A DNA stretch of 64,000 nucleotides from Candidatus Rifleibacteriota bacterium (GTDB lineage: Bacteria; Muiribacteriota; Ozemobacteria; Ozemobacterales; Ozemobacteraceae), in the NCBI GenBank assembly GCA_015232575.1, contig JADFZL010000004.1:14381-78380 (forward strand), given 5' to 3'. A program made the position numbers and the translations under genes. Numbering within the stretch: the first letter of the stretch is position 1; every line of letters starts with the position of its first letter. The notes beneath the pieces are model-generated. The model worked only from the letters and a program-made list of their open reading frames with translations. It searched no databases and was not told the origin of the DNA. This document shows positions 5,325 to 56,822 of the stretch, in pieces.

Positions 5325-8018
5325 TTAACCAGCTTTCAGAGTCGACAATGCTTTTTCAACACATTCGACTTCTTCAAGTGGAACAGGGTTTTTCAGATAA
5401 TTTCGCAGAATTTCTTCTGCTCCCTTGAGATTCTGCTCAGCGATTGCAGATATAGCGCTTTTCCTGATCAGTTGTTCCGGATCATTGAGCAAGCCTTTCA
5501 AGATAGTCTGTGCCCATGGAAACTTGATTGATTTAAGTACGAATACGGCTGAATCCCTCATGGGAACCTGAGAATCCTCAGCCATAAGCTTAATATTCTT
5601 GTCTGCCTGGGGAATCTTCCACTTATGAAGTGCCTTGAGGGCGTTTCCTCTTATTCGGTTGTCAGTATCATTAATAAAAATCATAAGGTGATTTATTGCT
5701 TCCGAATCATCATTTGTTTCGAGTGCTTCTATTGCGTTGGCACGAGTTCTTGAATTCTGGTGAGACAGAAATTTAATAAGTACTGGAGTAAGCAATCTTG
5801 ATTTGAGATTTCCAATGAATTTTAACACTGTTGACAAAGTCTGTGGTGGAAGGTTTCTTTCAAGATATGTTTTCCAAACGGGAACTTCTGCCGCTGAAGA
5901 CTGCTTGATCAGCGCTTGAATTAAATCAAACGATACCTCATCTGGAAGCTCTGAAATCCTGTCTGCAAGAGGAGTAATATTCTCTTTACTTTCGACTTCA
6001 CTCTTAATTCCAGAAGGAACTTTGTCAGAAACCTTTTTAGGAGTTTCAAATTCGATGCCAGCTGCCACATAGAACTTCCGGCATTTTATTCCGACCTCTC
6101 TGACATGATTTCTGGCTTTTTCAGCCCAATATCTGTCAGGAGATTTTCCTTCAGTAATTATTTCAGTGAGAACTTTTTCAATCAGCTCAAAACCCTGCGA
6201 ACTGAAGTTTCCACGCTCAATGAGTTTTCCCATCTCAGTAATTCGGCCATCACCCTTAGCTTTTCCAATTCTTTCCAGAGTAAGCTTTTCTTCTTCTGCG
6301 AGTTCCTTATCTACATCAGAAAAAATGCTGTTGAAGGAAACCTGAACATCTGTTTTTTTGTTTATCAGTCTTGAAATAAACTCTTCTTCAAATCTTCCCG
6401 CTGCAATATATCCTTTACATATTTTCTGAAATACACTTTCTGATTTGGAAATTTCCCATAACCGCATGAGAAGATTCAGTGTCTCCTGAGCAAATTCAGC
6501 CGAAGGACGCCCGAGATAGGCATCTTTGAGCAATTCAACCATTGCAGAATCATCTGGAAACTCTTCAAGATATCTTTTCAAAACCACGTCAAACGAGTAG
6601 CGAATATTCTTGCTTTCTTTGACATAATCTCCAAATTGCTTCAGAGTGTCTTTGTCATGGCTGTGAATCAGACAAAACCCTGCAACCGTCTCTGCCTGCC
6701 TGGCATTCCATGATTTTTGCTGCAGGTAATGCCTGCCCAGCATTTCTGTTGCTAACTTGTTTTTCGGGGAGAGATCAAGAAGCGTCAGAGAATATCTCTC
6801 CGCTTTTGGAAAGTTCTTTGATTTAAAAGCAGCTTCAGTGAGCATTTCAAGATGGGCAATTCTTTCATCTTTTTCAAGAAATACTCCAAGCTTTTTTTCA
6901 AGTCTTGCCAATGCACGCGCTGGAAATTTGTTCATCAAAAACCTGATAAAATGCATGTCCAGCATTTCGAGGAATCCAAAAAATACAGTAAAAAGGAAAC
7001 CAACAACAGTTATTCCGATCAAAATCAGAACGGCTGTCATTATTCTGCGTTTTGTTTTCTGTTCAAAAGTTTTTCTGGCTAGAACAAGCGTTGGGTGCTT
7101 GGGAGAAACTGATGCAGCCAGATCCATATACTTTAGAGCTTCTTTTTCATTGCTTTTCTTTATAGCTTCAAGTGCCTGTATCATTTGTCCCCAGAATGAT
7201 TTTGGATTCTGTAAAAGAAGCATTTTTGCCTGTTCAGAAACATTCTCTGAAGGAATACGGTCTAAAAAGTAATCGCACGCGAATGACATCTCAAGGAGTT
7301 TCAAACTGTATTTTTCATTTTCTGAAAAATGCGGATTCTGATTAAGACAAACTCTTAAGGCGCCCCAGTCTTCTTTTTCGAAAAGCTCCAGTGCAGTTTT
7401 CCACTTCTCTGCAACACTTCCCTTGGATAGACGCAGATGATGCTCAATTGATAAGAGCCGTTGTTTTTGATCGCGGGTTGCACTATTCATTGCAATGAGC
7501 TTTTTAATTATTTCAGACTCAGTCGCCAGATCTCGCTCTGACTCAGCTTTTTGTAACTTCTGGTTCAATTCGATAACAATAGCATCATTTGGTGAAGATA
7601 ATTTTGGTTCATTTACTGTTTCGGGAGGTGGCTGCTGCAAATCAGCAGGTTTTTGAGGAAGGGTTTCCGCAGGCAAAACCCCGGTTGTTGAAGAGTTAAA
7701 TCCAACCATCTGCGGGGTTTCCAGATTAACCGTAGAAGATCCAGTTTTTGCAGGTATATTGGTGACTACATTTGCTGAAACAGATGCTGTAGCTGTTGCA
7801 GGAGAATCTGGAATATTTTCTGGCGTTTTTGCCGGAGAGACTGCAGGTTTCACTTTTTCTGTTTTACTTGTTTTAGCGGAAGTCTTTGTAGTCTTTCCTT
7901 TCTTAGAGGTTTTCTTTGCAGCTTCTAATTCGGCTCCAGAATAAAAAAATACAAGACAAAAAGCCGCCAATGCAGCTTTTGCAATTGCTTGAAAATAAAA
8001 ACGTTTTAATTTTGTCAT
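5325..8018 (-). CDS. Large envelope protein. Signal peptide, lysine-rich low-complexity N-terminal region, TPR-like helical region, one central transmembrane helix and C-terminal HEAT/PBS-lyase-like repeats. Paralog of 59042-63331.
   Basis: Signal peptide AKAALAAFCLVFFYSGA. Transmembrane helix IMTAVLILIGITVVGFLFTVFFGFL. HEAT-like repeats SRTRANAIEALE and DTDNRIRGNALKAL. The C-terminal 200 aa align to the end of the 1429-aa protein. Confidence 0.7.
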   Translation of the reverse strand: MTKLKRFYFQAIAKAALAAFCLVFFYSGAELEAAKKTSKKGKTTKTSAKTSKTEKVKPAVSPAKTPENIPDSPATATASVSANVVTNIPAKTGSSTVNLETPQMVGFNSSTTGVLPAETLPQKPADLQQPPPETVNEPKLSSPNDAIVIELNQKLQKAESERDLATESEIIKKLIAMNSATRDQKQRLLSIEHHLRLSKGSVAEKWKTALELFEKEDWGALRVCLNQNPHFSENEKYSLKLLEMSFACDYFLDRIPSENVSEQAKMLLLQNPKSFWGQMIQALEAIKKSNEKEALKYMDLAASVSPKHPTLVLARKTFEQKTKRRIMTAVLILIGITVVGFLFTVFFGFLEMLDMHFIRFLMNKFPARALARLEKKLGVFLEKDERIAHLEMLTEAAFKSKNFPKAERYSLTLLDLSPKNKLATEMLGRHYLQQKSWNARQAETVAGFCLIHSHDKDTLKQFGDYVKESKNIRYSFDVVLKRYLEEFPDDSAMVELLKDAYLGRPSAEFAQETLNLLMRLWEISKSESVFQKICKGYIAAGRFEEEFISRLINKKTDVQVSFNSIFSDVDKELAEEEKLTLERIGKAKGDGRITEMGKLIERGNFSSQGFELIEKVLTEIITEGKSPDRYWAEKARNHVREVGIKCRKFYVAAGIEFETPKKVSDKVPSGIKSEVESKENITPLADRISELPDEVSFDLIQALIKQSSAAEVPVWKTYLERNLPPQTLSTVLKFIGNLKSRLLTPVLIKFLSHQNSRTRANAIEALETNDDSEAINHLMIFINDTDNRIRGNALKALHKWKIPQADKNIKLMAEDSQVPMRDSAVFVLKSIKFPWAQTILKGLLNDPEQLIRKSAISAIAEQNLKGAEEILRNYLKNPVPLEEVECVEKALSTLKAG

Positions 8019-8258: not shown

Positions 8259-9470
8259 TTGTCGCGCTTTATTGAATTCAATCAGAAGCTTTATTTCCGT
8301 TTCTGTCAGTTATCAGCGGCAATTTTAATGATACTGGTGGCAGAATTGTTTTTTTGTCCGGAAATAATATATGCAGGAATCAAACAGGAAAATAAGATTG
8401 AACGGGAAGAGAAGAATACGAGTTCTGATTTCTCTTTCTACAGGGAAAAATCTGTACAATCAGTAATTTATACTCATACAACGCCATTTCTTCGCAATGA
8501 ATTCAATTTCAGACATGTTTCTTACAAGTTTATTCCAGCGCCATGGTTTTTTCTTCCCGCACCCGAACAGCACACTACTTCTAATCAGCTTTGGCAGGCA
8601 TCTTTCAGCGGATATAATCTTACAGCTCCAATAGAATTCAAGGTTGGAAGAATATGGGCTGGAAACGAAACCTACAGGCCTGTAGACGGAGGATTCTTCG
8701 AATATAAGTGGGGTAACAGACTTTCATCAAACTTTCTTGTCGGAAAATCAGCTGCTGTAGATAATACTGCCAATCTATCTTATCCTGCAGTGTTTGAGGG
8801 ACAGTTGCGATATCGCTTTAATGAAAATGCTTTTCTCACGGCGGGAACCGGCCAGAGACAGGATAATTCTCATTCTATAGTGCAGATGGGCTATTCCATG
8901 GATGTTTTCAGGGTTATTGGCGAGTATAAAACTCATCAGGCATCAGAAACTTGGGGACTGAATCTGCATTACTTTACTTCACGCAAAATGGATCTAATTG
9001 GCAGTTATCGGCTTGAAGAAGGGCATGGTGTTAAGAATGGCAATATGCGTGCACTTCTTGGCTATGATATGGGGAAAGTATATCTGGAGGGCGGAACAGG
9101 TCTAAAATTTGAACCCGGACAACTTAGAAAGGAGAACAACAGCTACTACGAAAGTTCTATTACCTGGGGGCAGCCTAATCTAGGATTAGATGGAATCACT
9201 CTCGGATATCTCTTCGAACGTGGAAATGCCTCTGCAGCGCGTACGATCACTGGAACAGCAGAAAAGAGAGTTTCAAAGCAGACAAGAATAATTGTTGATT
9301 TATCAAACACAAGATTTGAAGACAGCGGAGAAAGTCTGCAGAATATAGATAGTCGTCTCTGGAGGAAAGTTGAATGGGGATTCTATGAACTTTCGTTCGG
9401 ATTTATCACCGGTTCAACTGTTGAATCACTCCAGAAAGAAGCAAAAATTAGAGCAAGTATGGAATTTTAA
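8259..9470 (+). CDS. Hypothetical outer-membrane or secreted beta-rich protein. It uses a TTG start with AGGAG 9 nt upstream.
   Basis: Hydrophobic N-terminus. Gly/Tyr/Asn-rich beta-strand-like composition ending ...ASMEF. It sits 79 bp upstream of the adenylation-ACP-reductase operon. Confidence 0.5.
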   Translation: MSRFIEFNQKLYFRFCQLSAAILMILVAELFFCPEIIYAGIKQENKIEREEKNTSSDFSFYREKSVQSVIYTHTTPFLRNEFNFRHVSYKFIPAPWFFLPAPEQHTTSNQLWQASFSGYNLTAPIEFKVGRIWAGNETYRPVDGGFFEYKWGNRLSSNFLVGKSAAVDNTANLSYPAVFEGQLRYRFNENAFLTAGTGQRQDNSHSIVQMGYSMDVFRVIGEYKTHQASETWGLNLHYFTSRKMDLIGSYRLEEGHGVKNGNMRALLGYDMGKVYLEGGTGLKFEPGQLRKENNSYYESSITWGQPNLGLDGITLGYLFERGNASAARTITGTAEKRVSKQTRIIVDLSNTRFEDSGESLQNIDSRLWRKVEWGFYELSFGFITGSTVESLQKEAKIRASMEF

Positions 9471-9548: not shown

Positions 9549-12527
9549 ATGTTTACTGATAAGCTTAGTCTTGAAAATCTTTCATTTCCTTCTGAAAAAA
9601 TTGCTATTACATGGCATTCTGGAGAAGGTGTCTGGAAAGACATTACTTATGGTGAATTCCGAACTCAGGTTGACAAGATGTCTGCTTTGCTTCGTGAAAA
9701 AGGCATTGGTCGGAAAAATTCAGTAATATTCCTTGGTGAGAACCATCCTTTCTGGCTCCAGGCTTTTTTTGCACATATTAAGAATTCATCTGTCGTTATT
9801 CCGGTAGATGGTTCTGTTACCGACGAGAGACTGCTTGATATAGTAGCTCTTTCCGGAGCATCTGGAATTTTTGCAAGCCCGCTGCAACAGGCAAGACTCG
9901 AAAAAATCTGGAACAGGTTTCCGGAAAAATTTGCTATTTTCAGAAATGAACTGGAACCATGGCTTGAAAAAAATGGAAAAGCCGTTGAGCCGGCTAGTGT
10001 GCCCGATGGAACAGCGGCGATATTTTTCACTTCAGGTACAACCGGGCAGCCCAAGGGAATAGTTCTTTCAGAAAAAGCTCTGGCTGCATCAATTGTAATA
10101 GGTACAGGACTTGGAAATATTGGTTCTTCTGATATCATGTTGACTTTACTTCCGTTTACTCACGTATACGGAATGGTCGATGCCGGATTTGTTCCGCTTG
10201 CAACTGGTGCAAGAAACATTCTGATGTCTTCCTTTAATCCGATGGAAGTTTTTCAGGTGATTTCAAAATTCAGAGTGAATTTCTTAAATGTGGTTCCAAG
10301 ACTTGCTGAAGTTATTCTTGCCGTTCTCACGCAGAGTGACAGTAAATTAGCAGGCTTGAACCTTTTTGTTGGCGGTGCATCATGTAAGCCAGATGTAATA
10401 CGAATGCTTCGAAAGCGTGGCATAAAGACTTCCTTCGGGTTTGGAATGACCGAAACCGCGGGTGGAATACTCGCCAATGAAGGAGAACCGGCTGAATCGG
10501 TCGGAATTCCTCCGGAGGACATCGAAATAAAAATCGACAACCAGAGCGATGGATTTGGTGAAATACTTATTAAATCACCAACAATGCTGACCTGCGTTCT
10601 TAACAACGAGGAAGAAACAAAAAAAATCTTTCATAATGGCTTTTTGAAAACCGGTGATCTTGGAATGATTGATTCAAACGGTTATGTTCACATTAAAGGA
10701 CGCCTGAAAGACGTAATTGTATGCGGCGGCGGAATGAATGTATATCCCGATGAGCTTGAGGCAAGGCTTGAATTGTCACCATTCGTTGAGGAATATTCCG
10801 TGACGGTTATGAAAGAGGACGGTTATGAATTTCCAATGCTTGTTGTTAAGCCGCGTGCAGCCTTTTTTAAAGATAGACCAACTCTGGACATTCAGGAATA
10901 TATTTCAGAGCAGGTAAAAAAACAGATTTCAAGATGGGCTGAATGGGAAAGATTCAGAAAGATTATGATTTCTGAGAAGCCTCTTCCAAGGTCTTTCAAC
11001 CAGAAAGTCCAGAGACACGTTCTTTCAGCAATGTTTTCCCGAGACAATGAAGAAATTGCACTTTCTGAAAATAAACAAAAAACGGCTTCAGATAACAGTT
11101 CTTTAAATAAATATTTTGAAAAAACTGTGAAATTCCTTGCGCATTTCCTTTCCAAAAAACATGAGCAAGCGTTTTTGAAAGCATCCCTTAACGATTTCCC
11201 CCAACTGGACTCTCTCGGAAAAATAGCTTTGCTTGCCGCTTTTGAAAACCGCTTCAAGATCAGAATACCTGGAATTCAGATTGAAAATGAAAGCAGTATT
11301 GAAAATACAGCGTTTCTTCTTTCTAAATATCTCGAAAACAATGCTGGAACTTCAGCCGTTGAAACAGATAAAGATGTAAACTTTCTTCCGCCGGAAAGAG
11401 ATAATTCAAAAGATGCCGTTTCGGCAAGGCTTGATTTCCTGAAAGACTTATCTGGTGATGAACTTGAAGAATTTTCGCCGCCGGTTGCTGCATCGCATCT
11501 GACCGGAAACATCGAAGGTTTTATCGGTTATGCACAGATCCCAACGGGAATTGCCGGACCATTGCTTGTAAATGGAGACCATGCGAAAGGTGAATTTTAC
11601 CTTCCTCTTTCCACGACAGAAGGCGCACTTGTTTCATCAGTTTCAAGAGGCGCAAAATTGCTTACTTCAGCCGGAGGAGTAAACGTAAAAATCATTTCTG
11701 ATGGAGTCATACGGTCTCCTATTTTTATGTTCAACTCGTTGGGTGATATGATCAAATTTAAAGAATGGTTCGAAAATTCTTTAGATAAAATTAAATCTGT
11801 GGCAGCAAGTACTACACGCCACGGACGGCTGAAGGAAGTAGAAATGCTTCCGCTTGGGACTTCGCTTGCAATTAGAATGGTGTATTACAGCGGAGATGCT
11901 TCGGGACAGAACATGTGTACTATTGCGACTCAGAAAGTACTTGACTATGTTGCAGCAGAATATAAAGGTCCAATGACCGACTTATTTCTTGAATGCAATA
12001 TTTCAGGTGACAAAAAGATTAATGCGTTTAATTTTATCCGGGGTCGCGGAAAGAAAGTCATTGCTGAGGCGCGTATTCCGGGAATACATATCGAAGATAT
12101 ACTTCACACAACACCTGAAAGAATGGTTAAAAACTGGGAAATGTCCGTTCTTGGAAGTTTCCAGGCACACTCTTTCGGAATTCAGGCACACTATTCGAAC
12201 CTGTTGACCGCATTGTATCTGGCAACCGGCCAGGATGCAGCCTGCTCAGCAGAGTCGTCAGCCGGAATAACGCATCTTTCATTGTCAGGAAGCGATCTTA
12301 AAGCAAGTGTTACTGTCCCCGGAATAATGGTAGCCACGGTTGGAGGAGGGACACGCCTTGCCACTCAGCAGGCATGTCTGAGAATACTCGGGTGCACCGG
12401 AGAAGGAAAAGCAGGAAAGCTTGCAGAAATTACAGCAGCAGGAATACTTGCAGCCGAACTTTCACTGATTGGTGCAATGGCAGCCGGCGATTTCTCCAGT
12501 GCACATGCCAAATACGGAAGAAAGTAA
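9549..12527 (+). CDS. Tri-domain fusion. An AMP-dependent synthetase (fatty-acyl-AMP-ligase-like) is followed by an acyl carrier protein domain and then a class-I HMG-CoA-reductase-like catalytic domain.
   Basis: Adenylation motifs FTSGTTGQPKG, GFGMTETAG, TGDLG and GRLKDVIVCGG. Phosphopantetheine attachment motif LDSLGKIALLAAF. HMGR motifs IGYAQIPTGIAGPLLVNGD, LPLSTTEGALVSS, GDASGQNM, ATVGGGTRLATQQACLRILG and ...AAELSLIGAMAAGDFSSAH, which carries the catalytic His. RBS GGAG lies upstream. Confidence 0.85.
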   Translation: MFTDKLSLENLSFPSEKIAITWHSGEGVWKDITYGEFRTQVDKMSALLREKGIGRKNSVIFLGENHPFWLQAFFAHIKNSSVVIPVDGSVTDERLLDIVALSGASGIFASPLQQARLEKIWNRFPEKFAIFRNELEPWLEKNGKAVEPASVPDGTAAIFFTSGTTGQPKGIVLSEKALAASIVIGTGLGNIGSSDIMLTLLPFTHVYGMVDAGFVPLATGARNILMSSFNPMEVFQVISKFRVNFLNVVPRLAEVILAVLTQSDSKLAGLNLFVGGASCKPDVIRMLRKRGIKTSFGFGMTETAGGILANEGEPAESVGIPPEDIEIKIDNQSDGFGEILIKSPTMLTCVLNNEEETKKIFHNGFLKTGDLGMIDSNGYVHIKGRLKDVIVCGGGMNVYPDELEARLELSPFVEEYSVTVMKEDGYEFPMLVVKPRAAFFKDRPTLDIQEYISEQVKKQISRWAEWERFRKIMISEKPLPRSFNQKVQRHVLSAMFSRDNEEIALSENKQKTASDNSSLNKYFEKTVKFLAHFLSKKHEQAFLKASLNDFPQLDSLGKIALLAAFENRFKIRIPGIQIENESSIENTAFLLSKYLENNAGTSAVETDKDVNFLPPERDNSKDAVSARLDFLKDLSGDELEEFSPPVAASHLTGNIEGFIGYAQIPTGIAGPLLVNGDHAKGEFYLPLSTTEGALVSSVSRGAKLLTSAGGVNVKIISDGVIRSPIFMFNSLGDMIKFKEWFENSLDKIKSVAASTTRHGRLKEVEMLPLGTSLAIRMVYYSGDASGQNMCTIATQKVLDYVAAEYKGPMTDLFLECNISGDKKINAFNFIRGRGKKVIAEARIPGIHIEDILHTTPERMVKNWEMSVLGSFQAHSFGIQAHYSNLLTALYLATGQDAACSAESSAGITHLSLSGSDLKASVTVPGIMVATVGGGTRLATQQACLRILGCTGEGKAGKLAEITAAGILAAELSLIGAMAAGDFSSAHAKYGRK

Positions 12528-12530
12528 AGT

Positions 12531-13289
12531 ATGAAAGTCATATTCGTTACCTCAAGTGTTACTTATGTGAAAGATAATTATCTTTCACTTTTCAACAAAC
12601 TCTTCACCGGACTTGAAAAACTGCCTGATGTACATCCTGTTGCACTCGGAGTCCTTCAGGTGCCAAAACCGTACCTTTTGAAAAATATTTTCGGCCTAAT
12701 TGCACTTGGCGCCCCTGACGTAGGTCTTACGCTTATGCGCAATCTGGCTTCTTCATGTGTGAATGATCCGAGAATACAGCTGGCATCTGCGCGCGGAATG
12801 AAAGTCCTCAAACCGGGAAATGTAAATTCTCCAGATTCGTTGAAGGAAATCGCAGCGCTTTCTCCTGATCTGATTGTAAATATCCGAACCAGAAACATAT
12901 ATCGCGATGAAATTCTGAAACTCCCTAAAATAGCATGTATAAACATTCACCACGGACTTCTTCCTGATCACCGCGGTACCATGTGCGATTTGTGGGCCTG
13001 GGTTGAGGGACGCCCTGTCGGATTTACAATTCACAAAATGAATGCAAAGATCGATGACGGCGAGATTCTTTACCGAAAGGAAATTCCGGTGAAGAACGTG
13101 AAATCATATATCGAAATACCATTTATCTCGAGTCAGTACGAGGCGGATGGTCTTTTAATGTGCATCGAAAAGTTTTTACAAAATAGCAACTGGAAGGGTT
13201 TTCCAAACTCAAAATCAGGAGTTCCGCATACCAGAAATCCGTCTTTTTCAAAAATTAGTGAATGGCGAAAGATGGGACTGAAACTGTAA
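12531..13289 (+). CDS. Formyltransferase-family protein (Fmt/PurN/ArnA N-terminal fold)
   Basis: INIHHGLLPDHRG (catalytic N..H) and KIDDGEIL (catalytic D). The start lies 4 bp after the stop of the preceding gene. Confidence 0.8.
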   Translation: MKVIFVTSSVTYVKDNYLSLFNKLFTGLEKLPDVHPVALGVLQVPKPYLLKNIFGLIALGAPDVGLTLMRNLASSCVNDPRIQLASARGMKVLKPGNVNSPDSLKEIAALSPDLIVNIRTRNIYRDEILKLPKIACINIHHGLLPDHRGTMCDLWAWVEGRPVGFTIHKMNAKIDDGEILYRKEIPVKNVKSYIEIPFISSQYEADGLLMCIEKFLQNSNWKGFPNSKSGVPHTRNPSFSKISEWRKMGLKL

Positions 13290-13304
13290 TTATAGGAGAA
13301 AAAA

Positions 13305-14156
13305 ATGACTGTACCTAAAGTAAAAACCAGCGATCTTAAGCTTGGAAATATACGTGTGGAATATCTTGATATTGGCGAAGGCAAACCTGTTTTTTTCCTT
13401 CACGGTAATCCCGGAATGAAGGAAGAATGGGAAGCTCTTTCTGTTGCTTTGGCTCAGGAAGGTTTCAGAAGCGTAGTTCCAGATAGAATCGGGCATGGAA
13501 AATCAGATCCGATCCTTTTCAGCACTGATGATCCGGAGAGAACAACAGATATTTACCATGAATTGATAAAGAAAACCTGTTCCGGACAGGCATATCTCGT
13601 TGGATACTCTTTTGGCTGCTTTCTGGCACTCCGAATTGCAGAAAAATATCCCAAGGCAGTTTCAGGGCTGGGGCTCATAGCCCCATTCATTTTTCCAAGA
13701 GATCTGCAGGAAAAACCATCTTCCATGCCCAAACTGGCAAAAATTCCAGTAATTGGTGATCTTTTAGGATTGCTTGTACCATTTCTGGCAAAAGGAAAAA
13801 TGAAAGAACACATTGAACGCGTCTTCCAGCCACAAAAGCCTGGAGAAGATATAATGAGGAAGTCGCTTGAGCAATATTCAACATTCAAGTCCGTCATCGC
13901 CGCGATGAACGATAAAAACGAAATGATTGCTGCAAACCAGGAATTGATTGCACAGCTTCCATCAATAAAAAAGCGTGTAATAGTTATCGGTGGCAGCAAT
14001 GATGCAGTATGTGGGTCAGATGAACACATAAACCGAATTGCAGAATCAATAAGCGGTGCTGAAAAACGAATCATTCAAAACGGCGGACATGGAATAATCT
14101 TTTCTCATGTACGAGAAATATCTGAAATGATTGCATCTCACATAAAAAAGGACTGA
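13305..14156 (+). CDS. Alpha/beta-hydrolase fold protein
   Basis: HGNPG oxyanion-region motif. Nucleophile elbow GYSFG. Length of about 280 aa. It is the last gene of the operon. Confidence 0.8.
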   Translation: MTVPKVKTSDLKLGNIRVEYLDIGEGKPVFFLHGNPGMKEEWEALSVALAQEGFRSVVPDRIGHGKSDPILFSTDDPERTTDIYHELIKKTCSGQAYLVGYSFGCFLALRIAEKYPKAVSGLGLIAPFIFPRDLQEKPSSMPKLAKIPVIGDLLGLLVPFLAKGKMKEHIERVFQPQKPGEDIMRKSLEQYSTFKSVIAAMNDKNEMIAANQELIAQLPSIKKRVIVIGGSNDAVCGSDEHINRIAESISGAEKRIIQNGGHGIIFSHVREISEMIASHIKKD

Positions 14157-14248: not shown

Positions 14249-14310
14249 TAATAAAAATACCTGCCCCCTTTCTCTGGCTTTATGCTGGAAGAGGGGGCAG
14301 GTATTTTTAT
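14249..14310. terminator. Bidirectional rho-independent terminator between convergent genes
   Basis: A-run, a GC stem acctgcccccttt / aagagggggcaggt, then a T-run tattttta. Read on the minus strand it is again a hairpin followed by a T-run. Confidence 0.65.
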
Positions 14311-14338
14311 TGATCAATGATTTGTTTGCTGGAGGCTT

Positions 14339-15631
14339 TTAATTCGAAACTATGAGGTCTAACAGAGAAATATAGCGCGATGCGATCCAGGAACTTTCCT
14401 GGATTGATTGAAATTCAAGGATTGGTCTTATTGTTAGAAGAATTTCGCGCCATTTTCTTTGTTCTTCAACTGGCTTGATTCTGAGAAACTGCAGAAGTTT
14501 GTGAATAGTTCTGTATTCATCCTTCTTTGTTTCTTTTGCTATGTTTTCACGCAGCCAGTACAATAGATCTTCATAGTAAACACTGCCTTCTTTGAGGCAT
14601 CTGTTGATTCTTTTGAATTTTATTATTACGTATTTTGAATGCAGGTATTTTAAACCAACATTTACGCTGATTGCCGCTGTCCTTGATACAATAACACCAA
14701 GCAACGCACCCATTGCCACATTTCCAATTACTGGAATTGGCAATGTTGCCATTGCAACAGATGAAATAACTGCGCCCTGGGTGGCCGAGGTTACAATAAA
14801 GCAGGCAAAACTTATTCCCAGCTTTATCGAAAAGTCTAATACCTCATCAATGGAAATATTTCCTAAGAGTCTTTCTCTGCTTATAGTACCTGTTTCAATT
14901 ATTTCGTCCACAGAGCTGGATGTTGCTTTGCCGGTAACCAGTTTGATGCATTTTGGAAAAAGTTTTTTTATCAAATTCTGAATCGGTTGCAGCTGAATAG
15001 ACTGTAAAAACATGTCAGCAGAATAATAAGTCAGTGCACTTATGCTGAGGTTTATGCCGGCAAGGCTTGCGGTCTTAATAGCCTCGCCAATGTCCACTTC
15101 AAGGTTGAGTTTAAAATTCAGTCTGCTGGATTTACTGTCAACTGGTTCAAGCGAAGGAGAATACTTTACGAAACCGCGAAAGTCCTTTCTTGGCGGCAGG
15201 GGAAAATCCTGTGAAAGATATTTTTCAGCTTTTTTGGAAAGTCCTTTTCCTGAAAAAACCTTGTACCCAACTATAACAAAATCCATTTTTTTATAGCCGG
15301 GTCTGAAAGACGATGAAGCAACAAAAGCATGAAAATTGCCCATGGAAGACATACTCAAAGTCTGGGCAACTTTTTTGATGGTCAATTCTATTATCAGACC
15401 TGTTTTGTGCAGAACGGTTTTAATCTTTGAAGAAGAATAATCAAGCTCAATCGGAGTAATATCGTCATTTGCTATTGCGGATTCTTCTTCGGTAAGCGCT
15501 TCATTAAAGTCAATTGTCTGCGCTGAAATAATAGAAGCATGGGAAAACATTGTACAGACAAAAAGGATGACAATGAAGAAAAATCTGCCACTTATGCGAA
15601 TATTCCGGTTTACAATTTCACTTGTTTTCAT
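14339..15631 (-). CDS. Hypothetical secreted or membrane protein with a glycine-zipper-like hydrophobic segment
   Basis: N-terminal hydrophobic signal. Segment ISFACFIVTSATQGAVISSVAMATLPIPVIGNVAMGALLGVIVS. Confidence 0.55.
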   Translation of the reverse strand: MKTSEIVNRNIRISGRFFFIVILFVCTMFSHASIISAQTIDFNEALTEEESAIANDDITPIELDYSSSKIKTVLHKTGLIIELTIKKVAQTLSMSSMGNFHAFVASSSFRPGYKKMDFVIVGYKVFSGKGLSKKAEKYLSQDFPLPPRKDFRGFVKYSPSLEPVDSKSSRLNFKLNLEVDIGEAIKTASLAGINLSISALTYYSADMFLQSIQLQPIQNLIKKLFPKCIKLVTGKATSSSVDEIIETGTISRERLLGNISIDEVLDFSIKLGISFACFIVTSATQGAVISSVAMATLPIPVIGNVAMGALLGVIVSRTAAISVNVGLKYLHSKYVIIKFKRINRCLKEGSVYYEDLLYWLRENIAKETKKDEYRTIHKLLQFLRIKPVEEQRKWREILLTIRPILEFQSIQESSWIASRYISLLDLIVSN

Positions 15632-15718: not shown

Positions 15719-17329
15719 TTACTTCGATTCGGTTGTTTTTGCCTGGTTTTTCAGAGTATTGTAATTATCAGTAGCTTTCTGCAAATCTGCCTGCATTTTC
15801 TTTGCACCTGCCTGGTCGCCCTGTTCAACAAGTCTGTTGTAATTAAGATAAGTTTCATAATACTTTCGTTCTGCATCCCGTAAAGTGCCTATAACCGGCG
15901 TTGTTCCGCGAGGGATGTCAGTTGATACCGGCGTCATTCCACCCTGCCAGGTTCCCGGACCATAAATTCCAAGGTTTTGTCCCTGACCAATGCTTATTGC
16001 CTGAGGATTTTCGTTGATAAAACTGTTTCCGGTTCCAACCATCGAACCTCTGTGAAATACAACATCAGATATCCATTTTGCAACTTTTCCACCGATGATA
16101 CCGCCAACGATACCTCCGATGATCGGCCCAAGTATTGGAATTGGTGCGCCAATTGCCATACCTATCGTCGAACCGATTGAAGAACCTGCCAGATCAATAT
16201 AGTCAACCGATTTGATTGCTTTTACAAGGTCAAATCTGTTTCCCTTTGCGTCAGCACCAAGCGAAGCTCCGATTTGTGAACCACCCATACTTGTAAATAC
16301 CGGAATAAATGCACCAACCATGGCTCCGATGGGTCCCGGGATGAAAGTCTTAACAACACTTGACACAACCTGACCACCTGCTGCGCCCAGAGCACCACCA
16401 ACGACTGAACCGGCGAATTCAATTGTTGCTACCTGTCTTGCTGCCTGCTGCAAAGATGGACGCTGTCCATTGATCATCTGCAGAGCCAGGTTTGTTCCAA
16501 CTGCAACAGTTGTAGTAACTGCAAGATTTGAAAGTGAAAAACTATTTTTTAACGATTGTCCTGCGTTTGCTACACCTTCATCAAGGCCCTTGCTGAGTTT
16601 TCCGCTGAAATTATCAGCATATTGAGGCGTTTCTGCCTCCATCATCATGTAGCCTTCAGTGTCTTTCTTTACCTGTTTGCCTTTTGAAAGGCTGGAGTTG
16701 CTGTCGTCTTTCTTCATTAACCCGACTTTTTGAGCAACTGAAGCAATCTTTGCACGAATAACACTGATAATGCGCTGAAGAGTAGATTTAATAGCATCAA
16801 TAATTGATTTAAGTTTCGATACTGCAACATTGCCGGCGCCATCCATGGGCATTTTGCCTGATTCAATTCCAAGTTTATTCAGACCAAGTCCGAGTTCTCC
16901 CTCGAAAGTCATATCAGGGGTAACGCCATTTGCGGCATTCCATTGACCGACCTGAGATTTGTAATTCTGTACACCACCATCAAGAGTGCTTTTTGCATTT
17001 CCCAGAATTGCTTTAATTCTCTGGCTTATGTTCATTGTATCCATATTTGATGGAGCAACTTGATTGTACAAAGGACGCGCTACGTCGTCAATCTGTGCCA
17101 GAGCTCTTTCAATGGATGTAAGATTGTGTGATAAAGTATTAACGTGTGGAAGCGACGACAGATCAATCTGGCTTCCTGCTTGAGATTGAGTTTGAAATTT
17201 CGACGAAACGCTGTATGCATCCTGTGCATGAACAGCAAACGTTGAAATGACAAACATGATCAGAGTCAGAATTGTTATTTTTTTTGAAATATTTCTGCTA
17301 AACATTTTCCCTACCCCCGTACAATTCAT
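15719..17329 (-). CDS. Hypothetical secreted protein. The N-terminal half is coiled-coil-like. The C-terminal segment is Gly/Ala/Ile-rich and resembles a glycine zipper.
   Basis: Signal peptide ILTLIMFVISTFAVHAQ. Gly-rich segments GSVVGGALGAAGGQ and IPILGPIIGGIVGGIIGG. Confidence 0.6.
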   Translation of the reverse strand: MNCTGVGKMFSRNISKKITILTLIMFVISTFAVHAQDAYSVSSKFQTQSQAGSQIDLSSLPHVNTLSHNLTSIERALAQIDDVARPLYNQVAPSNMDTMNISQRIKAILGNAKSTLDGGVQNYKSQVGQWNAANGVTPDMTFEGELGLGLNKLGIESGKMPMDGAGNVAVSKLKSIIDAIKSTLQRIISVIRAKIASVAQKVGLMKKDDSNSSLSKGKQVKKDTEGYMMMEAETPQYADNFSGKLSKGLDEGVANAGQSLKNSFSLSNLAVTTTVAVGTNLALQMINGQRPSLQQAARQVATIEFAGSVVGGALGAAGGQVVSSVVKTFIPGPIGAMVGAFIPVFTSMGGSQIGASLGADAKGNRFDLVKAIKSVDYIDLAGSSIGSTIGMAIGAPIPILGPIIGGIVGGIIGGKVAKWISDVVFHRGSMVGTGNSFINENPQAISIGQGQNLGIYGPGTWQGGMTPVSTDIPRGTTPVIGTLRDAERKYYETYLNYNRLVEQGDQAGAKKMQADLQKATDNYNTLKNQAKTTESK

Positions 17330-42247: not shown

Positions 42248-45200
42248 ATGAGGAGAAGTAGCATATTTCGTGTGCTGATTTTTTTGGTGTATCTGTTGAG
42301 TTTACAGGTTCACCTTCTGGCGGGTATTGAAAATTTAAAATGTACCATTACCGAACCAGCAGATACCGTCGGAAAGAAATTTAATTCTGGTGTAAGTGTT
42401 AAGTTGAATGCCAGTTGGGCAGGGGTAGCTACGCCTCCTTTTTCTGCGAGCTTTTTTTCCTCATCCGGGGCAGCGTCAAACGCACTTGGAACAACCGTTA
42501 CAAGTGGAAACAGCGCTGATTTTGTCACAACTGGCTCATCATTGGGCGCTGGGCAGAAGGGCTTCAAAGTAGAAGTTTATGAGACCTCAATACCAAATGC
42601 CACAATGTTGTCAGCAGCTTCTGACAAGAATATCGAAATCGACCTTATTCCACCTGCAATTACCGTTTCTCTTGATAACGGCTCTGTCTTTTCCCCGGGT
42701 ACTGGTTTTAATGTAGTAAAATTCACCGTTAGATCAAGCAAAAATGTTCAAGGTGTTCCTGATGTTACTATTTCTCCGGAAATTGCAGGTGCTTCGCCTG
42801 CTCCCGACGGAACGCCTACCGAAACAACTTTCAGATATACTCTTCAGCTTCCAACAAATGTTGTTGCAGGTGCTTATTCAATAAGAGCAGTCTGCAAAGA
42901 TACGACTCTTCCTCTCGATACAGCTAACTCCGGAAGCGGACAGACAGGTTTTACTGTAAAAAGCGATGGTCCTCAACCACCGACTGTAACCGTTTCAGAA
43001 CCAGTTTCTCCAATACAGCAAAAAAACTTTGTGGTGAAAGGGAAAATTACTAATGGAATGGTGAAACTTTCACTTCACGAAGGTGCTACGAAGATATCAG
43101 ATGCCGTCATTAACGGACTTGACTGGACTGCCACCGTTGCCAGCACTACTGAGGGTGAGCACAGATACACTGCAAGGGGTGCTGATGCTCTTGGGAACGT
43201 TTCCCCGGATTCTGCTGAAATCATCGTAAAGGTAGATATTACTCCACCTGCACGCGGAGTTCTTGTACAGCCGCAAAGTCCGACATCATCAGCAAAAATA
43301 AACATATCTGGAACATCTGCTGTTGATGCACTGAACAACGGAGTAAATTCTCCACCCGTTAAAGTTGGGCTGTATGCTATGGACGGGACAGAGATTGGTT
43401 CTGTTTCAGCAAATCTCGATGGATCGTTTACCTTTCTGAATGTGAATCTCTCTGATGGTGATAACCTGTTTTATGTAGTTACAGAAGATTCTGCTAATGG
43501 TCCTCCGGGAAACAGATCGACACCTTCTGTGCCTATAAGAGTTTTCCGTGACAATTCAGGTTCAACCGTTGCAACAGTTTTGATCGGATCATCCCAACTT
43601 GCATCTCAGCCAATTCCTTTAAGCGCAGACACCTGGCTGACAGCAGGAAATTACGGAGTTAAGATTGATTTTACGAAGGATATGGACGCCTCGTCTAAAA
43701 CTGCAATTTCCTACACACCTTTGAATGGAACTGAGCAGGTAAGCAATAACGGCTCCTGGATAGCATCAAGATCATTTTCGGGCATTATTACCATTCCAGG
43801 CGGACAATCTGCAGTTTACGATGGTCTGGCACCGGAACTGAAAATTTCTGCTGCAAAAGACATTGCAGGGAATGTAATGGCTCCACATACTATCCCGACT
43901 CCGTTTAATATTGATACTAACCCGCCCGTGACTGTAATGGATTCAATGGATACTTTATTTGTTGCAAGTGGAGCTACTTCAGTTACTATCAAGGGTTCCT
44001 CAAGCGATGCCGGCTCTGGTGTTGGTTATGTTGAAATTGCCTGGCAGCTATATTCAGGCGGAACAATTTCTTCACAGTCTGTTCCGATTTTTAATGGCGC
44101 GAATGCTTCCTGGACAGCTACCTGGGACGTTTCTACCCTTCCCGCCGGATATTACAAATTGTGGGCTATCGCTGCAGATCGTTCCAAACCAAATCCTAAC
44201 AGGGAAGCTATGATTCCAACAGGATTCAGGCTTGTTGCAGTTGACAGAGATGCGCCTTTAGTAACACGCGTGAGTATTGATGACCTTATTAAAGATATTA
44301 ATGACATGTATACCGGCACGACAGTGCCAGTTATTGCTTCGTCTGTGACAAAGCTCACCGCTGTTTTCTCAGATACCAGCGGTTGGGGAATTGATTTTTC
44401 CAGAACTGTGTTTACACTTGTACATCAAGGAAGCAGCACAAATATCGCTGGAAATTATGCCAACAACGGAACAGATACAATGTTTTTCACTTTTCCGCAG
44501 TTATCGCAGGCTGGAACATACACAGTATCAGTGAATCCGTTTGATAAAGCTGGAAATTCCATGCCACTTGTAGCAACAAGAACATTTGTTATCGACAACG
44601 GCGGACCCGTGGGAGTAAATTTTGAGCCTGTTGCAGGCATTTATGCTAATAATACCAATCCCGCAATTGCCACAGATCAGGTCTGGGCTTTTATTGATGA
44701 CCGTGAGGCTGATTATTCAAGTTCGACAATAGAGGTTGTCTATAATGGAAACACCACTGGACTTCAATTAAAGAGTGCCTCAACGACAGCCCTGGTCTGG
44801 GATTTCACCGGAGATTCTGCTACTCATACTTCCGATCAGAGCATCGATGGAAGATATAACATTACCGTAGTTCCATGGGATATTTTCGGAAATCGTGGAA
44901 ATGCAGTAAATTCACACTTCTTCCTTGATACACGGGCTCCGGTTGTTACCCAGGCTGACCCAGCGTCTTCATCCTGGAATGGTTTGTCGATGAGAACAAT
45001 AAAAGCCGGTGTTTCAGATGCTCCAAAGGATCATGTTACTTATGGCGGAGCAGCAGTTGCCAAAGATGCATCATGGCAGAATTCAAATGGCAGCGGAATC
45101 AATCAGTCTTCTGCATCATTCAGCGCAAATGTTGAGTTTCTCAGTAAAACTCTGCCTGGCGGGTTTTCTTCTGCTAACATGATGGAAATTACCATGCCAG

Positions 45201-47639: not shown

Positions 47640-48293
47640 ATGGAGACAGAAAAAATGGAAAAGAAAAACTTAATATTTGTCTTTCTGGTTCCGGTGTTAA
47701 TGATGCTGAACGGATGTGGTGGTGGTGTTGCCGGCGAAGGCAGCAATGACTATCCGCAAACCAGCGGCACGACAATTATCAGGGCGAATTCTTTCAATGA
47801 TAAGGGCTGGGACCTGATTTCAAAAGCTCAGTATCAAAGTGCAATAACCTCTTTTAATCAGGTGCTGGCAGATAATCCGACAGCCCAGGAAGCCTGTGAG
47901 GCAAACTCAGGGCTTGGATGGGCACGTGGTCGAATAGGCACTATGAAGGACGGTATGGAGTGGTTTGCAAAAGCAGTTGATGGTTCCAATGATGCAAAAG
48001 TTGGACTGGCTGCTGCTTATGTTCAGTTGGGTTCAAAAAGTGATCTCGAAAAAGCTGTTGATTTGCTCTATACAAAGCTAGGTGGAGAAAATCCGCACTT
48101 TCATTATACCACCTCAAGACCTACCGGTGTAAGCGATGCCGAATGTCATGCTCTTCTAGCTTTTGCGTTTGCTGGAATCGGAAAAAACGATGAAGCGACA
48201 ATTCAGCTTGATTATGCAAAGGAATTGAATCCAAATTGGCAGAATACAACAATTGACCAGATAAACAATGTCGTAGAATTCCTTAATAAATAA
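47640..48293 (+). CDS. TPR-like lipoprotein. Partner of giant protein 1 and paralog of 56148-56822.
   Basis: Lipobox MMLNGC. Starts 5 bp after the giant-gene stop. Confidence 0.65.
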   Translation: METEKMEKKNLIFVFLVPVLMMLNGCGGGVAGEGSNDYPQTSGTTIIRANSFNDKGWDLISKAQYQSAITSFNQVLADNPTAQEACEANSGLGWARGRIGTMKDGMEWFAKAVDGSNDAKVGLAAAYVQLGSKSDLEKAVDLLYTKLGGENPHFHYTTSRPTGVSDAECHALLAFAFAGIGKNDEATIQLDYAKELNPNWQNTTIDQINNVVEFLNK

Positions 48294-48451: not shown

Positions 48452-48538
48452 CCTTCATGCTTTAGCTCTTTTTTGTCGAAATATGAACGAATAGAAATAT
48501 TTTTTCGCTCGTTTTTCAAGAAAAACAGGAGTAAAGAC
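48452..48538 (+). promoter_or_regulatory. Conserved leader and 5' UTR of giant gene 2
   Basis: Paralogous to 42160-42247. Confidence 0.5.
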
Positions 48539-56147: not shown

Positions 56148-56822
56148 ATGGAGACAGACAAAATGCAGAGAAAACAGAAAAAAGTGCAGAAAAAAGGGCT
56201 ATTTGTTCTCATTTTTATTCCGGTAATGATGATGCTGAGCGGGTGCGGTGGAGGTGTTGCCGGCGAAGGTGGAAACCAGTATCCACAGACCAGCGGCACA
56301 ACAATTGTCAGGGCAAATTCTTTCAATGATGAAGGCTGGGACCTCATTTCAAAAGGTCAGTATCAGAGTGCAATAGCGCTTTTTAATCAGGTTCTTGCAG
56401 ATAATCCGACAGCTCAGGAAGCCTGCGAGGCGAATTCGGGTCTCGGGTGGGCACGCGGTCGGATAGGAAGTCTGAAAGATGGCATGGAATGGTTTGCAAA
56501 AGCTGTTGATGGCTCAAACGATGCAAAAGTTGGTATGGCTGCTGCTTATATTCAGATGGGTTCGAAAAGCGATCTGGAAAACGCCGTTGATTTGCTCTAC
56601 ACGAAACTCGGAGGAGAAAATCCGCACTTTCATTATACCACTTCGAGAGCTACCGGAGTAAGCGATGCAGAATGTCATGCTCTTCTTGCTTTTGCGTTTG
56701 CCGGAATCGGAAGGAGCGATGATGCAACCATTCAGCTTGATTATGCAAAGGAATTGAATCCAAACTGGCAGTCAACGACGATTGAACAAATTAACAATGT
56801 CGTCGATTTCCTGAATAAATGA
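56148..56822 (+). CDS. TPR-like lipoprotein, partner of giant protein 2
   Basis: Lipobox MMLSGC. 5-bp gap to the upstream gene. About 85% identical to 47640-48293. Confidence 0.65.
   Translation: METDKMQRKQKKVQKKGLFVLIFIPVMMMLSGCGGGVAGEGGNQYPQTSGTTIVRANSFNDEGWDLISKGQYQSAIALFNQVLADNPTAQEACEANSGLGWARGRIGSLKDGMEWFAKAVDGSNDAKVGMAAAYIQMGSKSDLENAVDLLYTKLGGENPHFHYTTSRATGVSDAECHALLAFAFAGIGRSDDATIQLDYAKELNPNWQSTTIEQINNVVDFLNK

Follow-up and report, generated by a model that had tools for sequence, protein, structure and literature searches.

The fatty acyl-CoA reductase FcrA is related to class I HMG-CoA reductase (HMGR). In the study that described it (Grossi et al. 2025, ISME J 19:wraf035; PMC11948995), the tested enzyme, Pb-FcrA of Candidatus Promineifilum breve, used NADPH to convert fatty acyl-CoA with chains of at least C14 to alcohols; it formed alcohol, left free aldehyde unreduced, did not reduce HMG-CoA, and was not inhibited by simvastatin. 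According to that study, FcrA enzymes (i) keep the catalytic residues Glu559, Lys691, Asp767, and His866; (ii) replace Ser684 with Glu and Leu862 with a bulky residue; and (iii) replace the HMG-binding Lys (K735; printed as Lys795) with a non-basic, generally small residue. The legend of its supplementary Fig. S11 lists "FadD+ACP" among the N-terminal fusion types of FcrA; no fusion of this type was tested there.

The window (the 64-kb stretch of DNA analyzed here) encodes a 992-residue protein in which an adenylation domain and a carrier domain precede an HMGR-like domain with the FcrA features. This protein is probably a self-contained, carrier-dependent FcrA-type fatty acid reductase serving a fatty-alcohol-derived envelope lipid pathway. 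An identical protein in the database, from a metagenome-assembled genome (MAG) of Candidatus Riflebacteria, is annotated "AMP-binding protein". The three open reading frames of the original prediction, which encode the fusion, a formyltransferase-family protein, and an α/β hydrolase, lie at the positions that it gave (Table 1). The gap between the fusion and formyltransferase genes is 3 nt rather than the 4 bp first counted, and that between the formyltransferase and hydrolase genes is 15 nt, as described; the formyltransferase gene is translationally coupled to the fusion gene. The clean bidirectional terminator described earlier was borne out: its RNA fold has an energy of -43.6 kcal/mol (z = -9.85), none of 200 shuffled sequences was equally stable, and it has an A-tract at its 5′ side and a T-tract at its 3′ side. 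By contrast, the three-gene unit was incomplete. A conserved outer-membrane β-barrel gene lies upstream, with a TTG start preceded by AGGAG and a product ending in Phe; it is the fourth gene, and the unit is therefore larger than three genes. Every motif quoted in the original prediction was found in the sequence, and searches with the Pfam profiles (HMMs) AMP-binding, HMG-CoA_red, Formyl_trans_N, and Abhydrolase_1 all gave matches, with PP-binding below threshold in the query.

Table 1. Features of the fatty acid reductase locus, in coordinates of the window.
Feature	Position	Strand	Basis or remark
Outer-membrane β-barrel (porin-like) protein, secreted, 403 aa	8259..9470	+	Conserved with the fusion
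Fusion protein: adenylation, carrier, and FcrA-type HMGR-like reductase, 992 aa	9549..12527	+	ORF, Pfam, homologues
FadD-type adenylation domain, about aa 1-500	9549..11048	+	Pfam AMP-binding, residues 14-347, E 7e-58
Acyl carrier domain, about aa 515-600; phosphopantetheine site Ser555, codon 11211-11213	11091..11348	+	
FcrA-type class I HMGR-fold reductase domain, aa 624-991	11418..12521	+	Pfam HMG-CoA_red
Formyltransferase-family protein, 252 aa, N-terminal FT domain only	12531..13289	+	Pfam Formyl_trans_N, E 5e-17
α/β-fold serine hydrolase or acyltransferase, 283 aa	13305..14156	+	Pfam Abhydrolase_1, E 1.5e-22
Bidirectional intrinsic terminator	14249..14312	.	Common to the unit and the convergent gene 14339-15631(-)

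The adenylation domain contains the motifs TSGTTGxPKG, GFGMTET, and TGDL and an invariant lysine, K486, which we take to be the conserved A10-motif lysine; its C-terminal subdomain matches AMP-binding_C_3 (E 9e-4). The best NCBIfam match of the domain is the long-chain-fatty-acid--CoA ligase PRK06187 (E 4e-66); among solved structures it lies nearest to feruloyl/fatty-acyl-CoA synthetases, FadD13, and Thermus LC-FACS, and its AlphaFold pLDDT is about 85. The original prediction called the domain fatty-acyl-AMP-ligase (FAAL)-like; by its closest solved relatives, it is of the FadD (acyl-CoA-synthetase) type, not the FAAL type. The nearest relatives outside the fusion family are AMP-ACP-PlsC and AMP-ACP-FAR-PlsC (ElbD-like) lipid enzymes, and FAR and PlsC domains are present in the next-best homologues, such as P0028 and P0030. 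Pfam gave no match in the fusion protein to FAR (PF07993/PF03015), PlsC (PF01553), or an SDR-type thioester reductase (PF07993 or other SDR).

The carrier domain scored 13.7 bits with PP-binding, below the Pfam cutoff of 20.8. Despite this score, we judge the domain to be genuine because (i) F550, L553, D554, S555, L556, and G557 of the motif F-x-Q-L-D-S-L-G are invariant in 19 of 19 fusion family members; (ii) several homologues exceed the PF00550 threshold; and (iii) AlphaFold predicts a carrier-like run of helices (residues 520-533, 540-543, 555-569, and 584-597), in which Ser555 opens a helix. These three lines of evidence bear out the ACP with an LDSLG phosphopantetheine site that had been proposed.

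The C-terminal domain matches HMG-CoA_red (PF00368) over residues 624-991 and profile positions 2-368 of 368 (E 3e-107), and in the PDB it is most similar to the archaeal HMGR 6hr7 (Methanothermococcus; E 7e-91). The catalytic residues E691, K822, and H986 do not vary among the 19 family members, nor does the D821/K822/K823 stretch, and D896 is present in 18 of the 19. Both the HMGR fold and the catalytic residues are thus present, in agreement with the hallmark class I blocks reported in the original prediction. Comparison of the substrate pocket with that of human HMGR revealed that (i) the position of human S684 is occupied by E815, a Glu invariant in 19 of 19 members; (ii) the position of human K735 is occupied by M865 and by M, L, I, V, or T throughout the 19 members, never by Lys; and (iii) the position of human L862 is occupied by F982, invariant in the fusion family. 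When these three positions were tabulated in 169 sequences, made up of representatives and the fusion family, the canonical enzymes had S, K, and L (7 of 7), and the 116 FcrA-like sequences had E or D at the first, no Lys at the second, and F or W at the third (113 of 116). In a neighbor-joining tree of 164 domains built without the Pb-FcrA and N. pharaonis sequences, the canonical enzymes formed a separate 10-tip clade and the fusion family was placed among the E684-type sequences; because the tree was built without the experimentally characterized sequences, membership of the FcrA clade rests on the signature residues. The fusion family also has its own invariant His874 and Gln879. As a monomer, the reductase domain gave a poor AlphaFold model. 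In the fusion family, the K735 position holds a medium-sized, hydrophobic residue, compared with a "generally small" one in FcrA (PMC11948995), so the pocket, and hence the chain length, may differ from those of the tested FcrA. Judged by its pocket, where the HMG carboxylate-binding residues are exchanged in the manner that defines FcrA, the domain is not an HMG-CoA reductase.

Most likely, the fusion protein reduces a fatty acyl thioester on its carrier by four electrons and so yields a fatty alcohol, with a domain that would replace the SDR-type reductase domain. The FcrA signature supports the original prediction that a carrier-tethered acyl group is reduced by an HMGR-type instead of an SDR-type domain, although the idea is not new. 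A free fatty acid, probably of medium to long chain, would be adenylated by the FadD-type domain and loaded as a thioester on the phosphopantetheine arm of Ser555 in the in-cis carrier. The arm would then present this thioester to the reductase domain with its class I HMGR fold at the C-terminus, where, by homology to the assayed FcrA, Glu, Lys, Asp, and His together with two NAD(P)H would reduce it via a bound hemithioacetal or aldehyde to a primary fatty alcohol, with regeneration of the holo-carrier. The fusion gene, presumably co-transcribed with those of the formyltransferase and the serine α/β hydrolase behind the outer-membrane β-barrel gene, would feed with them a fatty-alcohol-derived envelope lipid pathway, to which relatives appear to add UbiA, a PEP-synthase/Rph-like dikinase, DUF3419, an APH/EcKL kinase, and an MMPL exporter.

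Alternatively, the reductase might halt after two electrons and release a fatty aldehyde as a pathway intermediate, for example for amination followed by N-formylation. Aldehyde release is common among A-T-R enzymes, carboxylic acid reductases for example, and an aldehyde-derived amine would be a substrate for the formyltransferase; however, HMGRs transfer four electrons and keep the intermediate aldehyde bound, and we consider such a release unlikely. The assayed FcrA likewise gave alcohol and did not act on free aldehyde (PMC11948995). In our survey of 80 neighborhoods (46 Riflebacteria-type loci and 34 of other phyla), no conserved aminotransferase was found, which is a weak check since the 10 HMMs used include none for aminotransferase.

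The formyltransferase matches Formyl_trans_N with 62.8 bits (cutoff 26.1). Its catalytic residues N138, H140, and D175, aligned to the Fmt/ArnA motifs, are invariant in 16 diverse members, consistent with the conserved N/H/D noted originally. Among solved structures it is nearest to Fmt and the ArnA FT domain (E about 2e-15), LgrA gives a weak match (E about 3e-4), and it falls far short of the cutoff of every NCBIfam equivalog (for example, 65.6 against 201.5 for fmt). The fusion and formyltransferase genes are adjacent in 42 of the 46 Riflebacteria-type loci, and lie on separate contigs in one Riflebacteria genome. This adjacency and the translational coupling could point to an NRPS-like A-T-R enzyme with an amino acid or amino-fatty acid as its substrate, which would be N-formylated on the carrier and released as an N-formyl amino aldehyde or alcohol. 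Formyltransferase domains for carrier-bound aminoacyl groups exist, as in the F domain of linear gramicidin synthetase (LgrA), and the invariant pocket Glu815 could pair with an amine. Several observations nevertheless make such an enzyme quite improbable: (i) the adenylation domain is FadD-type, its top NCBIfam and PDB matches are all fatty or aryl acid CoA ligases, and the amino-acid adenylation model does not appear in the best 25; (ii) the same Glu is general in FcrA enzymes, which take plain fatty acyl chains (PMC11948995); (iii) the formyltransferase has no FcrA or carrier domain nearby in 28 of the 34 loci of other phyla and is unlinked in the one Riflebacteria genome; and (iv) it is much nearer to Fmt, ArnA, and sugar N-formyltransferases than to LgrA. 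The remaining alternative, a genuine HMG-CoA reductase of the mevalonate pathway, with HMG or a related acid as the substrate activated on the adenylation and carrier domains, agrees with the full-length HMG-CoA_red match, the strong similarity to 6hr7, and the UbiA-family prenyltransferase frequently nearby in relatives, but is scarcely credible: it is largely refuted by E815, M865, and F982, since the Glu would repel the carboxylate and the salt-bridge Lys is missing, the score with TIGR00533 (HMG_CoA_R_NADP, an NCBIfam equivalog) is 354.9 bits against a cutoff of 441.8, the FcrA with the same signature did not reduce HMG-CoA (PMC11948995), and no mevalonate-pathway genes were found in the scanned ORFs of the window or in neighboring loci.

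For an FcrA-type fatty acid reductase, the surveyed neighborhoods point to a lipid pathway. The formyltransferase family belongs to a multi-phylum cluster, whose other members are DUF3419, a hydrolase, UbiA, MMPL, a dikinase resembling PEP synthase, a second acyl ligase, and an FcrA-kinase fusion, and DUF3419 and the formyltransferase are direct neighbors in at least 10 loci. Lipid-type neighbors of the relatives are MMPL, DAGK_cat, UbiA, and DUF3419, and elsewhere FcrA domains occur in fusions with ACBP, DUF3419, and APH/EcKL kinases; none of DUF3419, UbiA, the dikinase, and MMPL was found in the 64-kb window. The hydrolase contains HGNPG, presumably the oxyanion motif, and the nucleophile elbow GYSFG, and among solved structures it most resembles arylesterases, perhydrolases, and haloalkane-dehalogenase-like folds. 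This partner is not constant: it is located downstream of the formyltransferase in 11 of the 46 Riflebacteria-type loci; a UbiA-family gene takes its place in many relatives, and a related hydrolase and a second AMP-ligase share one ORF in nine loci of other phyla. Our leading guess for the formyltransferase, a weakly supported one, is N-formylation of an amine that a later pathway step would introduce, such as a homoserine-type head group that DUF3419 would put on the alcohol. An N-formylated lipid derivative is a possible product.

The original prediction could not match this architecture to a characterized enzyme. That statement is not supported: FcrA was characterized in 2025 and "FadD+ACP" fusions are listed in the same paper, although none of those fusions was tested. 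The words "formyl", "kinase", and "Riflebacteria" are absent from the text of PMC11948995, and DUF3419 and UbiA partners are not discussed in the parts covered. Also absent from that paper are the conserved upstream outer-membrane β-barrel gene, the adjacency of fusion and formyltransferase in Riflebacteria-type loci, and the membership of the formyltransferase family in a multi-phylum lipid gene cluster. The enzyme type is therefore already known, and the conserved formyltransferase link and the wider lipid cluster appear not to have been described before.

Comparison with known systems places each component as follows. The formyltransferase shares Formyl_trans_N with its Asn, His, and Asp with the Fmt/ArnA/sugar-formyltransferase branch. 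Fmt and ArnA carry a C-terminal domain, Formyl_trans_C, which has no match in the 252-residue protein; the acceptors of that branch are Met-tRNA, UDP-Ara4N, and a dTDP-amino sugar, and the equivalog scores lead to no such assignment here. The DUF3419-formyltransferase pair of the relatives resembles, by analogy only, the betaine-lipid pair BtaA/BtaB; DUF3419 is the Pfam family named in papers on the betaine lipid synthase BTA1. BtaA moves the 3-amino-3-carboxypropyl group of SAM onto a lipid hydroxyl, and the next enzyme modifies the new amine. In BtaA/BtaB, that enzyme is a methyltransferase acting on a diacylglycerol lipid, whereas here it would be a formyltransferase with a fatty alcohol or derivative as the acceptor.

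Canonical class I HMGRs (human; Methanothermococcus 6hr7) share with the reductase domain the fold, the NADPH motif DAxGxN, and the catalytic Glu, Lys, Asp, and His; S684, K735, and L862 are replaced here, the adenylation and ACP domains are fused, and the mevalonate-pathway context is missing. Carboxylic acid reductases and NRPS terminal reductase modules have the same A, T, R order, phosphopantetheine arm, and nicotinamide-dependent reductase, but they end in a Rossmann-fold SDR acting as a single domain, whereas the C-terminus here has the class I HMGR fold, whose active site in canonical enzymes lies between subunits. By its domain content, the fusion would work like an A-T-R module, yet is not a member of the CAR/NRPS reductive release family. 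ElbD, the FadD-ACP-FAR-PlsC ether-lipid enzyme of Myxococcus, follows the same logic of in-cis carrier loading and a fused reductase giving a fatty alcohol; ElbD combines an SDR/FAR reductase with a PlsC acyltransferase, and the present protein has the HMGR fold and no acyltransferase domain. The closest counterpart, FcrA, shares the fold, the catalytic tetrad, the S684-to-Glu replacement, the loss of the HMG-binding Lys, and the bulky aromatic residue at L862, and the predicted reaction, fatty acyl thioester to fatty alcohol with NADPH, is the same. The tested Pb-FcrA uses free acyl-CoA and has an N-terminal β-rich "Lad" domain, whereas the fusion has adenylation and carrier domains instead, and presumably generates its own substrate, held in cis on the carrier. 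The gene context differs as well: in place of wax ester (WS/DGAT) or PlsC/AGPS ether-lipid genes, the partners here are a formyltransferase, a hydrolase, and an outer-membrane barrel.

The three ORFs of the original prediction are present at exactly the coordinates that it had assigned to them (table). The second and third genes encode products matching Pfam Formyl_trans_N (E 5e-17) and Abhydrolase_1 (E 1.5e-22), respectively. A 3-nt gap separates the fusion gene from the formyltransferase (FT) gene, and a 15-nt gap containing AGGAG separates the latter from the hydrolase gene. The terminator is very strong and, with A- and T-tracts on either side of it, can serve both convergent transcription units; it was found by direct folding, a simple terminator scan having missed it, probably because its loop exceeds the 8-base limit of the scan. 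The three-gene unit originally proposed stands in part: the hydrolase is a variable partner, and in many relatives a UbiA-family gene lies 3' of the FT gene instead. The closest related locus (L001) keeps the divergent HEAT arrangement with a 927-aa HEAT_2 protein and has an unannotated 405-aa protein, of similar size, at the position of the terminator-convergent gene. In the Ozemobacter-type loci L002, L010, and L092, the cluster occupies a conserved chromosomal position, with pyruvate:ferredoxin oxidoreductase subunits, RsfS, an RsmE-like methyltransferase, and a MiaB-like radical SAM gene upstream of the fusion. Elsewhere in the window, 2 giant predicted surface proteins both have weak, sub-cutoff matches to the T9SS-type Por_Secre_tail C-terminal sorting domain, and the ORFs 3' of their genes look paralogous to each other.

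Features of the operon, its flanks, and other regions of the window
Feature	Position	Strand	Description
HEAT-repeat protein	5325-8018	-	897 aa; N-terminal signal or TM segment; divergent from operon
Outer-membrane beta-barrel	8259-9470	+	upstream of fusion
Fusion	9549-12527	+	992 aa; AMP-binding + HMG-CoA_red (Pfam)
Ser555 codon	11211-11213	+	carrier domain of fusion
H874 and Q879	~12168-12185	+	FcrA-type domain of fusion
Formyltransferase (FT)	12531-13289	+	252 aa
Alpha/beta-hydrolase	13305-14156	+	283 aa
Terminator	14249-14312	both	-43.6 kcal/mol, z -9.85; A- and T-tracts flank it
Convergent gene	14339-15631	-	430 aa; unannotated
Convergent gene	15719-17329	-	536 aa; unannotated; weak glycine-zipper match
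Giant predicted surface protein	42248-47635	+	1795 aa; Big_13 + FlgD_ig domains
ORF 3' of giant gene	47640-48293		~220 aa
Giant predicted surface protein	48473-56143	+	2556 aa; Big_13 + FlgD_ig domains
ORF 3' of giant gene	56148-56822		~220 aa

The AMP-binding domain (Pfam, E 7e-58) spans residues 14–347 of the fusion. It had been read as fatty-acyl-AMP-ligase-like; its best NCBIfam match, long-chain-fatty-acid--CoA ligase, and its nearest solved structures, namely feruloyl/fatty-acyl-CoA synthetases, FadD13, and Thermus LC-FACS, place it in the FadD type instead. With a carrier in cis, such a domain would function as an acyl-carrier synthetase. An NRPS-like amino acid substrate is disfavoured by the absence of the amino-acid adenylation model from its best matches. 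Profile support is weakest for the carrier domain (PP-binding, 13.7 bits versus a cutoff of 20.8), and several relatives of the fusion exceed the PF00550 threshold. All 19 full-length relatives share an invariant F-x-Q-L-D-S-L-G motif, and this family alignment settles the predicted phosphopantetheine site despite the sub-cutoff score. In the AlphaFold model, the carrier region is predicted to form helices at residues 520–533, 540–543, 555–569, and 584–597, with Ser555 opening one of them. An identical protein is deposited as “AMP-binding protein” from a Candidatus Riflebacteria MAG. The homologue search recovered only ~19 full-length relatives (42–66% identity); those named by organism are from Riflebacteria or Ozemobacteraceae, and the remainder are metagenome sequences. 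The next-best matches, AMP-ACP-PlsC and AMP-ACP-FAR-PlsC (ElbD-like) lipid enzymes, cover the adenylation half only.

The HMG-CoA_red domain (Pfam, residues 624–991, E 3e-107) is complete, covering profile positions 2–368 of 368; among solved structures, the archaeal class I HMGR 6hr7 is nearest to it (E 7e-91). The HMGR part of the AlphaFold model of the whole fusion (monomer, 19 sequences) has pLDDT < 50 over long stretches. The catalytic residues are kept, with E691, K822, and H986 invariant and D896 present in 18 of the 19 relatives. The HMG-recognition residues (human HMGR numbering) are lost: (i) S684 is replaced by an invariant Glu (E815); (ii) K735 by M, L, I, V, or T; and (iii) L862 by an invariant Phe (F982). 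These signature residues, together with a score below the NCBIfam cutoff, largely rule out a canonical HMGR or mevalonate function. According to Grossi et al. 2025 (PMC11948995), the same 3 pocket substitutions define FcrA, a class I HMGR homologue that uses NADPH to convert fatty acyl-CoA of at least C14 to the alcohol, is inactive on HMG-CoA, and is insensitive to simvastatin. An exhaustive search with the domain alone against 1.84 billion representatives gave 3486 matches; among 169 tabulated sequences, which comprise the best representatives of these matches and the fusion family itself, the canonical S, K, L combination occurs in 7, and E/D at 684 with no Lys at 735 and F/W at 862 occurs in 116.

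The Fig. S11 legend of that paper lists “FadD+ACP” and “Lad” as N-terminal fusion types of FcrA; the enzyme assayed there is the CoA-dependent Lad type, and the “FadD+ACP” type is listed and not assayed (PMC11948995). Judged from its residues and domain order, the present enzyme would be a carrier-dependent FcrA, a new variant of known chemistry. The original prediction was right to propose HMGR-type reduction of a tethered acyl group and wrong to regard the architecture as unmatched to any known enzyme, given the published FcrA (2025, PMC11948995). Literature searches for work linking HMG-CoA reductase to adenylation, a carrier protein, reductive release, formyltransferase, or Riflebacteria returned nothing relevant besides this paper; those on UbiA with formyltransferase, MMPL and Bdellovibrio returned nothing relevant, and no follow-up to PMC11948995 was found. 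In the loop before the AH-x-x-N motif, the Riflebacteria fusion family has an invariant His (H874) and Gln (Q879) of its own, at positions occupied by Gly and Asn in most other HMGR/FcrA sequences; these 2 residues may reshape the acyl pocket.

FcrA-type domains are elsewhere fused to A-ACP plus a kinase, ACP alone, DUF3419, DUF3419 plus a kinase, ACBP, PilZ, and an AfsA hotdog domain. These FcrA/HMGR-like fusion types are undescribed. In the domain search, homologues P0273, P0355, P0250, P0309, P0268, P0316, P0265, P0255, and P0266 carry such fusions, arranged as A-ACP-FcrA-EcKL kinase (~1450–1500 aa), FcrA-DUF3419, DUF3419-FcrA-APH, FcrA-APH, FcrA-ACBP, PilZ-HMGR-like, and AfsA-hotdog-HMGR-like. 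The pocket signature is different in the PilZ and AfsA types (R590 to I/V/L and S684 to R/K/Q).

The FT family extends beyond the fusion. Scanning one genome per species with the FT-family alignment gave 80 loci, whose partners were sought with local HMMs. At the 46 loci of the Riflebacteria/Wallbacteria/Bacillota type, FcrA adjoins FT in 42, and the A domain and FcrA form one ORF in 36 of them. The other 34 loci belong to Bdellovibrionota, Verrucomicrobiota, Planctomycetota, Myxococcales, Terriglobia, Moraxellaceae, and others. Constant among their partners are a stand-alone second acyl ligase (30/34), UbiA (26/34), and a dikinase of ~900 aa that resembles PEP synthase, PigC, and Rph (26/34); DUF3419 occurs in 20/34 and the hydrolase in 19/34 (fused to the ligase in 9). 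FcrA is nearby in only 6 of the 34, kinase-fused in 3 and next to DUF3419 in 3. DUF3419 is the immediate neighbour of FT in at least 10 loci, and in Phosphitispora fastidiosa FT adjoins DUF3419 and a 908-aa FcrA-APH/EcKL kinase fusion. One Riflebacteria genome carries the barrel, the fusion, and UbiA on one contig without FT, and FT with the second ligase, UbiA, dikinase, and DUF3419 on another; the adjacency of fusion and FT is therefore frequent, not obligatory. The fusion set and the FT set seem to belong to a single larger pathway. The literature searched yielded no description of the multi-phylum DUF3419–FT cluster, and tblastn detected no UbiA, DUF3419, MMPL, dikinase, or second ligase in the 64-kb window.

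Examples of this cluster (range L013–L091) are L077 5843-16881, L065 9998-16696, and L013 6982-15939; its members are DUF3419, FT, hydrolase, second AMP-ligase, UbiA, and the ~900-aa dikinase, sometimes with MMPL and an FcrA-kinase fusion, in Bdellovibrionota, Verrucomicrobiota, Planctomycetota, Myxococcales, Terriglobia, Bacillota, and Riflebacteria. At L065 10726-13137 and L077 10597-13233, a single ORF encodes the hydrolase, at the N terminus, and the second acyl-AMP ligase, in the same domain order as in OleB-OleC fusions. The second ligase matches OleC (beta-lactone synthetase) models with E ~1e-62. The OleB/OleC analogy was rejected, because this match is as weak as generic FadD matches and the hydrolase nucleophile is Ser, not the Asp of OleB.

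In a scheme built on the observed domain identities, catalytic and carrier residues, FcrA signature, operon structure, and gene associations, the adenylation domain would load a fatty acid onto the Ser555-phosphopantetheine, the FcrA-type domain would reduce the thioester with two NADPH to a fatty alcohol, and the alcohol would enter an envelope-lipid pathway. Because FT retains its catalytic Asn, His, and Asp and has Fmt, ArnA, and sugar N-formyltransferases as its nearest relatives, it would by default be expected to N-formylate an amine. Betaine-lipid papers tie the Pfam family DUF3419 to the synthase BTA1; this link, the DUF3419-FcrA fusions of some lineages, and the DUF3419–FT neighbours lead to the working guess of a formylated homoserine-type ether, in which the alcohol might, on weak indications, be etherified with a homoserine-type group before the amine is formylated. 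The kinase fusions and the dikinase beside UbiA suggest an alternative or extra branch via alkyl phosphates. Tentatively, and with the odds somewhat against so broad a proposal, A-ACP-FcrA, the dedicated FT family, and their recurrent partners (DUF3419, UbiA, the PEP-synthase/Rph-like dikinase, the FcrA-fused APH/EcKL kinase, the hydrolase–second-ligase fusion, MMPL, and the Riflebacteria barrel) could constitute an undescribed multi-phylum pathway from fatty acids to a new class of fatty-alcohol-derived envelope lipids, for example an O-alkyl ether with an N-formylated homoserine-type head or a lipid built from an alkyl phosphate or diphosphate that the UbiA enzyme would use.

FcrA-type reductases and the dedicated FT family are recurrently linked, by fusion or adjacency, to DUF3419, UbiA, dikinase, kinases, and MMPL exporters in Riflebacteria, Wallbacteria, Bacillota, Bdellovibrionota, Verrucomicrobiota, Planctomycetota, Myxococcota, and Acidobacteriota, which points to a widespread lipid pathway; the literature searched contains no account of this pathway. 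Its named carriers Phosphitispora fastidiosa and Halobacteriovorax marinus are presumably cultured, so the lipid product could be accessible to lipidomics. Fatty acyl reduction by the HMGR fold is already published, having first been recognised in 2025. Only a CoA-dependent FcrA has been assayed so far, and the present locus clearly exemplifies the predicted carrier-dependent form. The predicted activity would convert a free fatty acid to a fatty alcohol within one self-contained enzyme. Carboxylic acid reductases and ElbD would be functional parallels to the fusion, but its reductase fold differs from theirs, which makes it of interest for enzymology and fatty-alcohol biocatalysis.
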